Shown: positions 18,230 through 39,347, counted from the stretch's first letter. The stretch is 64,000 bases of DNA from a virus (IMGVR_UViG_3300023118_000008:28188-92187), one strand, 5' to 3'. A program made the numbers and translations. Notes: generated from the letters alone by a model not told the origin.

Positions 18230-18478
18230 ATGAAAATACATTTAACAACAGCAATAGATAAGTACAAAAATCAGTTTGGATATAAACTTCACTTTGTGCC
18301 AGAATTAGGAACGATGGTTAAAACTTTACGTAATGACAGTAAAAAACCAAAAGAAATCCCCTTTGATGAATTAGAAGTACAATCTGTTACGCACTATCCT
18401 GATGGGGTAGTCATATCTCTACATTATTCTGAATTACAAAGAAAACAAGCGGAGGCGTATAAATTAGACTTATTTTAA
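18230..18478 (+). CDS. hypothetical protein
   Basis: ORF whose stop codon (18476-18478) lies inside the transposon target-site duplication. Confidence 0.45.
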   Translation: MKIHLTTAIDKYKNQFGYKLHFVPELGTMVKTLRNDSKKPKEIPFDELEVQSVTHYPDGVVISLHYSELQRKQAEAYKLDLF

Positions 18479-18482
18479 TCTT

Positions 18483-18507
18483 GGTAAGTATACCCACTTT
18501 ACACAAG
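18483..18507. repeat. Left terminal inverted repeat of the transposon (25 bp)
   Basis: Exact reverse complement of 23482-23506. Confidence 0.85.
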
Positions 18508-18524
18508 CTTAAATCAAAAACTTA

Positions 18525-18552
18525 AAGACACTTTTAATAGGTGTCTTTTTTA
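18525..18552 (+). terminator. Hairpin plus T-run (AGACAC-TTTTAATAG-GTGTC-TTTTTT) just inside the left terminal repeat
   Basis: Perfect 6-bp stem followed by T6. Confidence 0.5.
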
Positions 18553-18638
18553 ATTTACGGAAATTATGGAAAAAGACGATAAAGATTTAAAATTGATAAC
18601 ATCAGTGTTTATATTAGCCTTCACCGCCATCATGCTTT

Positions 18639-19082
18639 TTATACCTGTTTTTTTATTTGTTTTATATATTGGTATACCACTATTAGACAAGATAGAGCTG
18701 CCGCCGTTGCCCAAAAAATAAAAACACCTCGAAGATATTTAGTGAAACTTACACTGTAATAATAGCCAATACACATGCTGATGCTTTTGATAATCAAAGA
18801 GACTATTAGATAAATCTCTACTCTGATAAGAAGGAGTTGAGTTACAAATCTTGATTTGAGTAGTAATTTTTCAAGCAATAATAAAAGAATAAAACTTAGT
18901 ATGAAATACATAAGTGATAAGCAAAACAGCAAGGAAACTAACAAAATAAATGACTCTTTTAACAATGAAGGCTTAAAGAGGTAAAAAGAAACAACCCAAA
19001 AACAAGCTATAAAAGCAATATAAAGTATGTTTTTAAAAGTTTCTTTACTTAACTTCTCAACAAATTTATCTACCATGTTCAT
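18639..19082 (-). CDS. transposon cargo: polytopic membrane protein (about 4 TM)
   Basis: 147-aa ORF with several long hydrophobic stretches. Confidence 0.5.
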   Translation of the reverse strand: MNMVDKFVEKLSKETFKNILYIAFIACFWVVSFYLFKPSLLKESFILLVSLLFCLSLMYFILSFILLLLLEKLLLKSRFVTQLLLIRVEIYLIVSLIIKSISMCIGYYYSVSFTKYLRGVFIFWATAAALSCLIVVYQYIKQIKKQV

Positions 19083-19107
19083 CTATCTAAATTTTACAAT
19101 AGCCTGA

Positions 19108-19578
19108 CTATTTGATATTAAGGTCTTTATATAAAATATCAATCACTTTATTAACTTCAATTGCCATATCAATATACAATGATTTATCTAGTTTAAGATC
19201 CTCTTGTACCATAGTCAGCTGAAAACTGCACATACTATGAATTTTGCTCACTAAGTCCATAATTGATTGTCTGCTCTTTTTATTTAAGTAAATACTGTTA
19301 CGCACAGACGCATTGTTTAATAGACTAACTGTTTCAACTGAACCTTTTGCATCGGGATTGCTTTCAAGAAACTCACTATCATATACATTTGACTCTAATT
19401 CAAATTTATAGTCAGTAAGTATCTTATAGATTTCTTGAAATGCTGGAATCTTGTGTTGATAAAGCAATTCTATCCTTTTGGAACGATTGACAAGAGCGTT
19501 AGTTACAATCCCTACTATTATACCACTGACTATTGGAGATAATACTGCTAGCCATTTAAAAAGTTCTGTGTTATCCAT
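19108..19578 (-). CDS. transposon cargo: N-terminally anchored membrane protein
   Basis: TM segment LAVLSPIVSGIIVGIVTNALV followed by a soluble domain. Confidence 0.5.
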   Translation of the reverse strand: MDNTELFKWLAVLSPIVSGIIVGIVTNALVNRSKRIELLYQHKIPAFQEIYKILTDYKFELESNVYDSEFLESNPDAKGSVETVSLLNNASVRNSIYLNKKSRQSIMDLVSKIHSMCSFQLTMVQEDLKLDKSLYIDMAIEVNKVIDILYKDLNIK

Positions 19579-19904
19579 TATCTAGTGAACGAATTTTTAT
19601 AGTCGTTGAATATGCCCTCAATCTGTTCCTTGATATACTCCAACTCCTCATTATCAGGATTTCTGCTTATGATATAGCCTTTATACAATTCGTCAGCCTG
19701 TTTAAATTTCCTTTCACTATTATCAAGACGAATTTGTAACTTTTCATGCATCTCTCTTGCGCTGATCGCCCTACTGATTCCAGAGGATTCAAAAGGCTTT
19801 AAGACCTCCCTTACGGTGTTTAAAAATTGTTCTTGCTCAGTCATATTTGAATAATTTAGAGGGGAATTTACAAAATAAAAAACTAATACTAACAATAAAG
19901 CCAC
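19578..19904 (-). CDS. transposon cargo: hypothetical protein (likely starts at the internal MTEQEQF)
   Basis: ORF on the minus strand within the cargo operon. Confidence 0.4.
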   Translation of the reverse strand: MALLLVLVFYFVNSPLNYSNMTEQEQFLNTVREVLKPFESSGISRAISAREMHEKLQIRLDNSERKFKQADELYKGYIISRNPDNEELEYIKEQIEGIFNDYKNSFTR

Positions 19905-19926
19905 TCATTTAAGTGGCTTTTTTAAT
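19897..19926. terminator. Hairpin AAGCCACT-CATTTA-AGTGGCTT followed by TTTTTT (T-run on the plus strand); lies between two minus-strand cargo genes
   Basis: Perfect 8-bp stem; the T-run is cleaner on the plus strand; possibly bidirectional. Confidence 0.45.
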
Positions 19927-20026
19927 TCTTAATATTATGGATAATGACGAAGATTTCCTAGATTTTTTAGACAAGCTGGAAATTTTGGTAAAAACTTTCC
20001 CGAATGACCAATCTGAAATTTTAGCT

Positions 20027-20275
20027 TTAATCGTGCAATACAGAAGAATGTTGAACCAAGATGATAAGACCTAAGAAGCTTTCTTTCGCCGATTGAGTAT
20101 TATTCTCAATATTATAGAGGTATTCTTTGGACTTTCCCAACGATTCACCCTTAAAATCAATTTTGGCAATCAGTTCAGATAATTCTTGAAATACTTTCGG
20201 TTTATGCTCTGGTATACTATTAGCAAATAAATATGCAAGTTCTACTATATGTTTTATGGTGGTATATTTGTTCAT
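20027..20275 (-). CDS. transposon cargo: hypothetical protein
   Basis: ORF on the minus strand. Confidence 0.4.
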   Translation of the reverse strand: MNKYTTIKHIVELAYLFANSIPEHKPKVFQELSELIAKIDFKGESLGKSKEYLYNIENNTQSAKESFLGLIILVQHSSVLHD

Positions 20276-20308
20276 ATTTTCAATTTTAAAGGTTATAAAT
20301 ATAGAAAT

Positions 20309-20596
20309 TTAAGGAATAAGAAAATCTTTAGCATTTGAGAAATTATTAATCAGAGCGTCATTACAACACTTTTTGATAATTTCCAAAACTTTTTTATGCG
20401 GGATATTATGACCTTGTGCTAGAAGCGAGCTTGCAGAATTATGAGATTTGTAAACATTCATAATTGCAAACCTCACATTTGACTCCGCAAGGAATTTCGA
20501 GCTTGGATCTTGTAGCATTATAGCTATTTCCTTGTCAATCGCTTTATCGACAGACTTTTTAAGTTTTTCTTCGGGGGTTGAGAATAGTCCAAACAT
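20309..20596 (-). CDS. transposon cargo: hypothetical protein
   Basis: ORF on the minus strand. Confidence 0.4.
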   Translation of the reverse strand: MFGLFSTPEEKLKKSVDKAIDKEIAIMLQDPSSKFLAESNVRFAIMNVYKSHNSASSLLAQGHNIPHKKVLEIIKKCCNDALINNFSNAKDFLIP

Positions 20597-20608
20597 TGTT
20601 TCAAGTTT

Positions 20609-21118
20609 TTAGGTTAGCCTTACTTTAAATTTTCTAAAGAAGATAAAGATTGAAGTTATGATTACTGTAAACAGAATTACGATTAGAAAGTCTTGCTTTG
20701 TTGCTGAAATGTAATATTCCAACTTTTTGGAGTATCCAAAATCATAGTGAAGTTGCGCCATATTCATAGGAGGATTTACAACCCTGACCTGATTACCGAA
20801 AGGAGTATTAAAGTCAATATAAGCAATTGGAGTATCTCCACTAACTTGCTCTGTAAATGATAATGTTTTTGGCTTGTAGGATGCCATAAAAGAAAACTTA
20901 CCTGTATGCTCAATTGCCAAGACTAAAAACCAACCAATAAAAAGAGATTTTAAAACATACTCCAACAGATAGCTTGGAATATTTACATCTTTTTTATCAG
21001 CAGTTGGGGCACTATTGCTTATTGCAGGATTTGGGACGCTTACTTTTATAGGCTTGTCATTAAAGGCAACCGCATAAAATACGATGCACATTGCTATAAA
21101 AATCAATGCTATTACCAT
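20609..21118 (-). CDS. transposon cargo: membrane protein (3 TM)
   Basis: Hydrophobic N-terminus, internal TM and C-terminal TM. Confidence 0.5.
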   Translation of the reverse strand: MVIALIFIAMCIVFYAVAFNDKPIKVSVPNPAISNSAPTADKKDVNIPSYLLEYVLKSLFIGWFLVLAIEHTGKFSFMASYKPKTLSFTEQVSGDTPIAYIDFNTPFGNQVRVVNPPMNMAQLHYDFGYSKKLEYYISATKQDFLIVILFTVIITSIFIFFRKFKVRLT

Positions 21119-21522
21119 AGGACTTAGAATTAAGCCACTATCAAACCCGAACAGTGAAGATTAGGTACAAAAAAGCGTGGGTTTGTAACTAAATCCTATC
21201 TATTAGAGGTTCTGGTAAACCTTACGACATAGAATAAGTACACCCACGCCTAAGCGTGAGCGAAAACCTATTCATTTTGCGTCGTTTTTTAAAAATTTAC
21301 CAGATTCCTAATTGACAAAATGAAAGCTAACGCTTATATTTTCGATATGTAAAGCACAAATATTATAAAATTTTGAGCAGAAAAGCAAGCGTTTGATTAA
21401 TATAAAATTTACACTTTTGGAAGCTAAAAAACTAAGCAGTATATTTGTAGTCAGCTGTTTAGGTTATTTCCTAATTAATATTTAGCATTTAATTACACTT
21501 AATTTTTGTAATTGGTGTAAAA

Positions 21523-22527
21523 TTGTTATATTTGAAAAAGAAAAACCACAAAGCTATGTTTAATAAAGACTTTAATTCGATTTTGGAAATTGCAAGGGAG
21601 TTTGCAACGGAAGAAAAATGTATAGCACATCTTGAAGAGCTATATTGGAATAACGAGCCACAAAGCCCTTTCAGCGAGGGAAGCAAAGTTTATAGATGTA
21701 AAAACGGTAAATATAAATGCAAGACTTCGGGAAAGTATTTTACAGTAAAGACAGGTTCGATGTTCGATAATACTAAAATCGAGCTTCCGAAGTGGTTTAT
21801 GGCTATTTGGATTATCACTTCAAATAAAAAGGGAGTAAGTTCCGTACAGCTTGCAAGAGATTTGCAGATAAGCCAAAAGTCGGCTTGGTTTATGACAATG
21901 AGAATCAGAAAATGCTTTGGTATTGAAAACGATACTGACGAGCAGTTTGAGGGAATTTGCGAAGCCGACGAAAGCTTTTTTGGTGGCAAGAACAAAAACC
22001 GCCATAAAGACAAAAAAGTTCCAATGTCGCAAGGACGTTCTTTTAAAGACAAAACACCTGCAATCGGGATCTTGCAAAGGGGAGAATCTGAAATCATAGA
22101 TGGCAAAAAAGTAATCAAATCTCATAGCAAGGTTAAGGTTATCGTTGGAGATAACACAAGAAGAGAAACAATCCAGCCATTTATCAAAAAAGTCCTAGTT
22201 AAAGACAGTGTATTGATTTCTGATGAATGGCACGGTTATCGAGGTTTGGACAGTATGTACGACCATCACGTTGTAGACCACGGAAAGAAGCAGTATGTTG
22301 ATTTTGACAATCCTGAAATACACTCAAATTCAATGGAAGGATTTTGGGGAATCATAAAGCGTTCTTATAATGGAATTCATAATTGGTGGAGCAAAAAACA
22401 CATGCAGAACTACCTAGATGAAAATGTATACCGCTTTAACCTGAGAGGCGAATCAAACTCTTACAGATTCAATACAGTAATCGCCAATTCTAAAATAAGA
22501 ACTAAATACAGAGAGTTGACAGCTTAA
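21523..22527 (+). CDS. IS1595-family (ISXO2-like) transposase
   Basis: N-terminal transposase zinc-ribbon (C..C...CKNGKYKCKTSG...), then LPKWFMAIWIITSNKKGVSSVQLARDLQISQKSAWFMTMRIR, then the C-terminal DDE_Tnp_IS1595 signature HSNSMEGFWGIIKRSYNGIHNWWSKKHMQNYLDENVYRFNLR. Confidence 0.85.
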   Translation: MLYLKKKNHKAMFNKDFNSILEIAREFATEEKCIAHLEELYWNNEPQSPFSEGSKVYRCKNGKYKCKTSGKYFTVKTGSMFDNTKIELPKWFMAIWIITSNKKGVSSVQLARDLQISQKSAWFMTMRIRKCFGIENDTDEQFEGICEADESFFGGKNKNRHKDKKVPMSQGRSFKDKTPAIGILQRGESEIIDGKKVIKSHSKVKVIVGDNTRRETIQPFIKKVLVKDSVLISDEWHGYRGLDSMYDHHVVDHGKKQYVDFDNPEIHSNSMEGFWGIIKRSYNGIHNWWSKKHMQNYLDENVYRFNLRGESNSYRFNTVIANSKIRTKYRELTA

Positions 22528-22558
22528 TTTACTAATTTTACAAACTTAAATGAAATGA

Positions 22559-22834
22559 ATGATTAAGATCCTGAAAAAAGAGAAGCTCCTGCTCGATGGA
22601 AATATCAGCAAGACGCAATTTGAGAATGAATGGTATTTTAACCTTGAAGATATAGCTTCCTATTTGGAAGAGGATTTATCCGAGGTTGAGAGCCTAGACC
22701 TCCCTCTATTGATTGAGGGCAAGCGGGAAACTAAACCAACCGCTACATTTGAGAATATAGAAAAAGGACGGAAAAAAGAAGAACTGTCAGACTTTAATAA
22801 GAAGCTTTTAAAAGCGAGATTTTTTAAGAAGTAA
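22559..22834 (+). CDS. hypothetical protein within the transposon
   Basis: ORF downstream of the transposase. Confidence 0.35.
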   Translation: MIKILKKEKLLLDGNISKTQFENEWYFNLEDIASYLEEDLSEVESLDLPLLIEGKRETKPTATFENIEKGRKKEELSDFNKKLLKARFFKK

Positions 22835-22862
22835 AATAGAGCAATGGTGGAACACTGCTCTA

Positions 22863-23113
22863 AGTATCGTTCTTGCTACTATTGTTCACAAGAGTTACAG
22901 TGATGGCATTCTACTTCTTCAACAGGAATAGTAAAGGGATGTCCTTGCGGAGCAATCTCTTTCCTACCGTTTCTAAAACGAGCCTGACGAAAAATCCACT
23001 TGTAACAAACGCCATCGAAAAGGTTGTAAAAGTGATTCATATCGGTTGACTAAAGTTCTGTCCATTACTAAAGTCTATCCAAAATTCAACAGTTGTACAA
23101 CAAGAACGATACT
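22863..23113. repeat. Nested 251-bp unit bounded by perfect 13-bp inverted repeats (AGTATCGTTCTTG / CAAGAACGATACT); encodes a 53-codon Cys-rich ORF on the minus strand
   Basis: Inverted repeats at 22863-22875 and 23101-23113; interior is relatively GC-rich. Confidence 0.45.
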
Positions 23114-23170
23114 ATAAAAATAGTAAATTTTCGGATACAAAAAGCCCCTAACTCAAAGGGGCTTAATTAT

Positions 23171-23359
23171 TTATGAGACTTTTTGAATCTTTTCTAAAAC
23201 TTCATCAAAAGAGAGTTCTGTATTAATGGTACCATTGACAGTTTTGATTGTGGTAGATATGGAAGTATTTTCTGTATTTGTATGCACTTCTACAATATAT
23301 TTAACATTGATGGAGTGCTTTCTTTCATATTCATCAACAATTATAATTGAACCTTTCAT
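23171..23359 (-). CDS. hypothetical small protein within the transposon
   Basis: 62-aa ORF. Confidence 0.3.
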   Translation of the reverse strand: MKGSIIIVDEYERKHSINVKYIVEVHTNTENTSISTTIKTVNGTINTELSFDEVLEKIQKVS

Positions 23360-23443
23360 AACTTTATTGCTTTAAATTAGTTTGAAAAGTACAAAAAATT
23401 AAAAGAATCCAAAACAAATAATATTAACCCAATACCTTAACTT

Positions 23444-23481
23444 TACTTCGCGGGAAAAAGAACTAGAAACAGTTCAAAAAT
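23444..23481 (+). promoter_or_regulatory. Recurrent motif copy (cttCGCGGGaaaaagaactagaaacagttcaaaaatc) inside the transposon, abutting the right terminal repeat and facing outward
   Basis: Motif family; the same 100-bp unit occurs inverted at 39057-39160. Confidence 0.5.
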
Positions 23482-23506
23482 CTTGTGTAAAGTGGGTATA
23501 CTTACC
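23482..23506. repeat. Right terminal inverted repeat of the transposon
   Basis: cttgtgtaaagtgggtatacttacc. Confidence 0.85.
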
Positions 23507-23518
23507 TTAATCTTTTCC

Positions 23519-23580
23519 CGCCACTTTAAGCAGGCAGTCCCGAAATAATAAGGGGCGAGGTTCGATTCCTTGAGTGGCAC
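23519..23580 (+). ncRNA. 62-nt tRNA-like element: 7-bp acceptor-like stem plus canonical T-arm (CGAGG-TTCGATT-CCTTG), no recognisable D or anticodon arm
   Basis: 5' CGCCACT/GCCACTT pairs with 3' GAGTGGC(A). GGTTCGATTCC T-loop. 30-nt central region with a possible GTCCC/GGGGC stem. Starts 4 bp after the right target-site duplication. Confidence 0.4.
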
Positions 23581-39010: not shown

Positions 39011-39056
39011 ATTAAAAATCACTCTAATCTAATATATAGTTACCAAAATAAATTTA

Positions 39057-39332
39057 GGTAAGTATACCCACTTTACACAAGATTTTAAAACTGTTTTTTT
39101 AGTTCTTTTTCCCGCGAAATAAAGTTAGGGTATTGGGTTAATATTATTTTCTGTTCATAACTTGCCTCTATTGAAAACCAATTTATAATAGTCTTTGACT
39201 ATATTTGTTATCTAATCAAAACTTTAAAAATTATGAGTGCAAGCCTAGAAAAAGCTATTGAGCTGTTAACATCGGAAATTTATTTAATGAGGTGGCTTAA
39301 TTTAATGTCGGTGTAAAGTGGGTATACTTACC
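39057..39332. mobile_element. 276-bp MITE-like non-autonomous derivative of the 18483-23506 transposon; 25-bp terminal repeats (left perfect, right 22 of 25) and 8-bp target-site duplication TAAATTTA
   Basis: Left repeat 39057-39081 is identical to the transposon's left repeat. Right repeat at 39308-39332. Direct repeat taaattta at 39049-39056 and 39333-39340. The first about 100 bp equal the reverse complement of 23405-23506. Confidence 0.8.
39089..39124 (-). promoter_or_regulatory. Recurrent motif copy inside the MITE, facing outward (leftward)
   Basis: Reverse complement ctttatttcgcgggaaaaagaactaaaaaaacagtt. Confidence 0.45.
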
Positions 39333-39347
39333 TAAATTTAAAGGGAT

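Follow-up and report, generated by a model that had tools for sequence, protein, structure and literature searches.

The 5,024-bp segment described here is best explained as an intact transporter insertion sequence (IS) of the IS1595 family, native to Flavobacterium and recently inserted into a T5-like phage, with a passenger module headed by an RNA and a cargo that most likely arrived as a hitch-hiker; a probability of about 0.8 is assigned to this reading. The element occupies positions 18483-23506 of the window, the whole 64,000-nucleotide stretch of viral DNA that was analysed and to which all coordinates refer.

Boundaries of the element and the phage that carries it

The segment begins and ends with perfect 25-nt inverted repeats, the match continuing to 28 nt at 96%, and it is enclosed by two copies of one octamer:

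18475-18482, no strand: target-site duplication, left copy TTAATCTT; the 82-aa gene upstream stops within it, and it is present as a single copy at the empty site of contig L008
18483-18507, plus strand: left terminal inverted repeat GGTAAGTATACCCACTTTACACAAG; its 22-nt core also bounds elements in Flavobacterium genomes
23482-23506, minus strand: right terminal inverted repeat, the exact reverse complement of 18483-18507
23507-23514, no strand: target-site duplication, right copy TTAATCTT

No match to the terminal repeat, at up to 3 mismatches, arose in any of 100 dinucleotide shuffles of the window. The repeats, the 8-bp duplication and the presence within the duplicated octamer of the upstream gene's stop codon had all been noted in the initial annotation and are borne out; the 82-aa ORF at 18230-18478 ends there. 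A tRNA-like element that was also claimed, at 23519, did not hold up: neither ARAGORN nor Rfam called a tRNA in this region, and it folds no better than shuffled sequence (z = -1.1). The empty-site comparison that the initial annotation had proposed is supplied by the related phage contig L008, which is 98.6% identical to the window across the upstream gene and reads through the gene stop, one octamer (TTAACTTT versus TTAATCTT here) and then TTCCCGCCACTTTAAGCAGG..., with the 5-kb insert missing. The insertion is confirmed as real, and as recent because its ends and duplication are perfect and a close phage relative has the empty site. The element sits among small accessory ORFs, and no gene is disrupted.

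The replicon that received it looks like a T5-like virulent phage of Flavobacterium, judging from its replication and auxiliary genes and from the lack of lysogeny genes within the 64 kb; the structural genes lie outside the window. Its T5 A1-like protein shares 48.7% identity with proteins of Flavobacterium phages; DnaB, RNA ligase, GroEL and HNH endonucleases are among the PHROG matches; and no integrase or repressor family is matched by any of the 38 ORFs in the window that are 120 aa or longer.

Transposase, conserved core and bacterial relatives

The right-hand part of the element contains the transposase and a set of small features that follow it:

21556-22527, plus strand: IS1595-family DDE transposase, 323 aa, identified by Pfam, NCBIfam and homolog alignment
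22559-22834, plus strand: ORF91, an accessory ORF that follows the transposase in every close relative (71-80% identity)
22862-23113, no strand: nested unit with inverted repeat AGTATCGTTCTTG / CAAGAACGATACT, present in some copies only and about 90% identical there
22879-23040, minus strand: ORF53, within the nested unit, with C-terminal CHHCNSC
23142-23164, no strand: bidirectional terminator hairpin
23171-23359, minus strand: ORF62, a small right-end passenger ORF, with weakly similar small ORFs near the ends of other copies

The transposase is matched by Pfam DDE_Tnp_IS1595 (7.8e-36) and, with 184 bits (cut-off 75), by NCBIfam transpos_IS1595, and these matches uphold the family assignment. 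An earlier reading of the gene as 21523-22527 was right as to family and plus strand, but the start is most likely the ATG at 21556 (MFNKDF..., as in all homologs) rather than the TTG at 21523. Residues D138, D223, E261 and K268 are invariant across 16 homologs and are taken as catalytic. ORF91 has no recognisable domain. The nested inverted-repeat unit had been described previously and is indeed found, at about 22862-23113, as are the internal hairpins and terminators, which are enriched in the element (10 terminator-like hairpins found versus 2.8 expected).

A scan for the terminal repeat in 185,579 species genomes gave matches only in records of Flavobacterium or Flavobacteriaceae. Six distinct complete relatives of 4,064-7,366 bp were recovered from Flavobacterium chromosomes, each with an exact 8-bp AT-rich duplication; their order is passenger genes, RNA, transposase and 91-aa ORF, and the passenger genes vary between copies. 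More distant elements with 8-bp duplications were found in L031 (about 2.4 kb), L041 (2.1 kb), L112 (4.3 kb) and L114 (4.8 kb). Identity to the closest transposases from bacteria reaches 80-83%, and a near-identical donor copy is not known. Across these copies the constant core consists of the transposase, ORF91 and, in some, the ORF53 unit. The element appears native to Flavobacterium and appears to be built from this core and a variable passenger module, RNA-headed in most copies.

A miniature element in the same genome

The window also holds a second, much shorter insertion:

39057-39332, no strand: 276-bp non-autonomous miniature element with terminal repeats as in the 5-kb element, the left perfect and the right differing at 3 inner positions

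It is flanked by its own 8-bp duplication, TAAATTTA (39049-39056 and 39333-39340), and over its initial 93 nt it shares 92% identity with the right end of the larger element, taken in reverse. The miniature element may descend from a different copy, since its right repeat is the variant found in F. chungangense copies. Neither it nor the conserved RNA at 21165-21343 had been noticed in the initial annotation.

These observations are consistent with a process in which the DDE transposase would recognise GGTAAGTATACCC...TTTACAC ends and cut AT-rich targets with an 8-bp stagger. In the course of infection the element would move from the host chromosome to an intergenic spot of the large T5-like virulent phage. 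It sits precisely where the 82-aa gene stops, and the duplicated octamer keeps this gene whole. The same transposase would also have moved the 276-bp derivative, to another intergenic position at a distance of 15.5 kb.

A structured RNA between transposase and cargo

Between the transposase and the cargo lies a conserved block:

21165-21343, minus strand: rod-shaped structured RNA of about 175 nt, supported by covariation, fold and a covariance model; no Rfam match

Its minus strand folds at -68.7 kcal/mol (z = -5.7), and the plus strand has z = -2.1. A covariance model gave 19 matches near IS1595 transposases, and later also matches in L112, L114 and L115, in loci that had all been picked for an IS1595 transposase or its ends, so that this count of association covers only such loci. 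In the alignment 93.6% of cells are paired and compensatory changes occur in 45 of 55 pairs, figures somewhat inflated by the fitting of the alignment to the model; slid alignments reach 37-45% paired cells and 12-17 pairs, and none of 500 shuffles attains the observed values. Among paired cells G-U makes up 13.9% and A-C 0.7%. Structure and strand of the RNA are established by these data. There is no match among 4,227 Rfam families; the RNA is a previously unlisted one, carried by the element family and located ahead of the passenger genes.

A promoter-like box lies 5' of the RNA in most copies; in the window copy (about 21357-21364) it reads AATATTTG, a near-match to the Bacteroidetes -7 box TAnnTTTG, and it is likewise imperfect in several close relatives. 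At its 3' end the RNA closes with a basal stem and then a U-tract, 46 nt ahead of the c169 ATG, and across copies the stem and U-tract precede the first passenger start codon by 41-57 nt. The RNA always reads into the first passenger gene, whose product is usually exported or membrane-bound and nearly always begins with a signal peptide, a lipoprotein signal or a membrane helix. RNA and passenger module are divergent from the transposase in the Flavobacterium clade, and on the same strand, downstream of the transposase, in L028, L041, L046, L048 and L066.

From this anatomy we infer that the RNA is a cis-acting leader and that the passengers would be expressed only through terminator read-through, on which they appear to depend because the spacer is fixed and no second promoter box is evident, by eye, in the spacers listed. 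It is somewhat doubtful that the block works instead as DNA (a transposase-binding site, promoter region or cruciform) or as a free-standing, trans-acting small RNA. It does sit in a divergent promoter region, and the apical 3' strand of the window copy matches the terminal repeat at 12 of 13 positions; in L031, however, the resemblance does not co-vary with the repeat, and a function as DNA is contradicted by both the G-U over A-C asymmetry between strands and the compensatory changes. For a small RNA, most transcripts might end at the terminator-like stem and U-tract and yield a discrete product of about 175 nt, and a rod with a U-tract fits this as well as it fits a leader. The fixed spacing to the first passenger ATG and the single promoter box argue the other way, and when the module switches orientation the RNA stays with it, which speaks against either alternative. 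A leader function is therefore preferred.

Passenger genes

The cargo comprises six minus-strand ORFs (18639-21118), three with predicted membrane-spanning helices:

18518-18572, no strand: boundary motif copy 1 (about 55-60 nt), with terminator hairpin 18524-18548 and the start of a small convergent ORF; end of unit 2
18639-19082, minus strand: c147, passenger with about four predicted membrane helices; unit 2
19108-19578, minus strand: c156, passenger with an N-terminal membrane anchor and a four-helix bundle (model); unit 2
19578-19844, minus strand: c88, small soluble passenger; first gene of unit 2
19888-19947, no strand: boundary motif copy 2, with bidirectional terminator 19897-19920; divides the cargo units
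20027-20275, minus strand: c82, small soluble passenger; unit 1; no family match
20309-20596, minus strand: c95, small soluble passenger; unit 1; no family match
20609-21118, minus strand: c169, passenger with three predicted membrane helices plus a small beta domain; unit 1, first gene behind the RNA

The initial annotation had recognised a reverse-oriented block of six genes with three membrane proteins and no recognisable domains, all of which stands; its description as a single operon does not. The cargo is two terminator-bounded units, c169-c95-c82 (unit 1) and c88-c156-c147 (unit 2), because the bidirectional terminator at 19897-19920 splits it. None of the six proteins, which are mostly membrane or small helical, has a match in Pfam, PHROG, NCBIfam or, for defence systems, PADLOC; the single hit of c88 is a sub-threshold HEPN (E 0.03), and fold comparison gave no informative match.

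Three of the proteins have relatives associated with this transposon family. A relative of c169 (38% identical) holds the equivalent position in another IS1595 element (L114), one of c156 (82% identical) stands last among the passengers of an IS1595 element from F. microcysteis (L112), and one of c147 (32% identity, E 5e-16) adjoins the family terminal repeat in F. ginsengiterrae (L017). Since relatives of all three ride related bacterial elements, the cargo looks like part of the passenger pool of the family rather than something phage-specific. Its most likely beneficiary is the transposon or the host envelope, and it would have reached the phage as a hitch-hiker.

Alternative readings of the insertion

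It is unlikely, on balance, that the passengers form an accessory system of benefit to the phage (superinfection exclusion, abortive infection, anti-defence or envelope remodelling) and that selection has kept the insertion. The three membrane proteins would suit such a role, as would a position among small accessory ORFs with no gene broken; in L113 a c156 relative adjoins an Mrr_cat plus nSTAND3 gene, a defence-type neighbourhood, and the c156 model, a membrane-anchored helical bundle, also resembles Csx28, among hundreds of generic helical-bundle matches. The lack of any PADLOC or other family match weighs against it, as does the occurrence of c169, c156 and c147 relatives as passengers in bacterial elements. 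The closest related phage lacks the element, moreover, and neither the transposase nor the ends nor the RNA motif is found in any of the 2.9 million viral contigs of IMG/VR.

A very improbable reading makes the mobile unit a short IS, of transposase and close ends, and the 5-kb unit composite or accidental. Weak inverted repeats (21516-21536 / 22522-22543; 82% complementary) do flank the transposase and share a TTTTACA motif with the terminal repeat, but they differ from it at 7-8 of 22 positions, lack a flanking duplication and belong to a set of 4 internal matches versus 2 expected, near chance. A smaller nested IS with its own ends, the scenario that the initial annotation had held against its own interpretation, was not seen: every complete relative shares the outer repeats and has an exact 8-bp duplication, with passengers inside, and even the smallest relative, at 2.1 kb (L041), encloses the RNA and a passenger gene. 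That host IS reads were joined to a phage contig during assembly is scarcely credible. The data are metagenomic, and Logan contigs of the same phage (L003, L109, L111) break exactly at copies of the terminal repeat, but such breaks are normal behaviour of de Bruijn assemblers at a 25-nt sequence occurring four times. A chimeric join would not leave an exact 8-bp copy of the phage target at each side; the left junction and whole element are present in two assemblies (an ENA and a Logan contig), and the genome holds another element that is flanked by a duplication of its own. An intact transporter IS carrying hitch-hiking cargo accordingly remains the preferred reading.

Relation to known elements

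Passenger genes are carried by the ISPna2+ and ISNwi1+ groups in ISfinder, and the size of the present lineage (4-7.4 kb, in Flavobacterium) is at or above the range of the passenger-carrying IS1595 groups. The element resembles the transporter ISs of this family (Siguier, Gagnevin and Chandler 2009, as cited in PMC7986276) in its IS1595-type DDE transposase, short GG-starting terminal repeats, 8-bp duplication and passengers that lie inside the ends and are unrelated to transposition. It differs from them in residing in a virulent-type phage and in having a conserved structured RNA at the head of a swappable passenger module, together with conserved ORF91 and ORF53; no description of the RNA or of either ORF was found. 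A relative from Chryseobacterium/Elizabethkingia, ISEIsp1, has been assigned to the ISPna2 group (PMC9366087).

In their survey of phage ISs, Leclercq, Gilbert and Cordaux (2012, PMC3429520) found 92% of phages to be IS-free, and no transposon in an active phage was known to them. Like the ISs of that survey, the present one is a bacterial transposable element at a non-disruptive intergenic site; unlike them, it is 5 kb long, has nine passenger or accessory ORFs and shares one large phage genome with a miniature derivative. A related transposase is encoded by only 3 short unannotated fragments in a set of 50,697 deposited phage records. The 276-bp element is comparable to miniature inverted-repeat transposable elements, having no transposase and sharing with the full-length IS its terminal repeats, right-end subterminal sequence and 8-bp duplication, but it differs in sharing the phage genome with its presumed autonomous partner.

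The RNA is reminiscent of attenuators and riboswitch expression platforms in its own promoter-like box, conserved 5' leader structure and stem with U-tract just before a gene, but differs in forming one long rod that lacks a multi-helix junction and in having no known ligand or partner. Like RNA-OUT of IS10, it is transposon-encoded; since it has no overlap with the transposase mRNA, it does not count as an antisense RNA of that type, and its proposed target would be the passenger genes rather than the transposase. The working principle, and that only, is similar to integron cassette platforms, with a constant core, promoter-like box and leader beside variable cassettes and recurring boundary motifs, although the element has neither integrase nor attC-type sites. 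In L112 an internal repeat-like relic lies beside the c156 relative, which suggests that cassettes may be captured through use of a more distal end. If the RNA is indeed a leader, the element would both supply and gate the expression of any cassette placed behind it.

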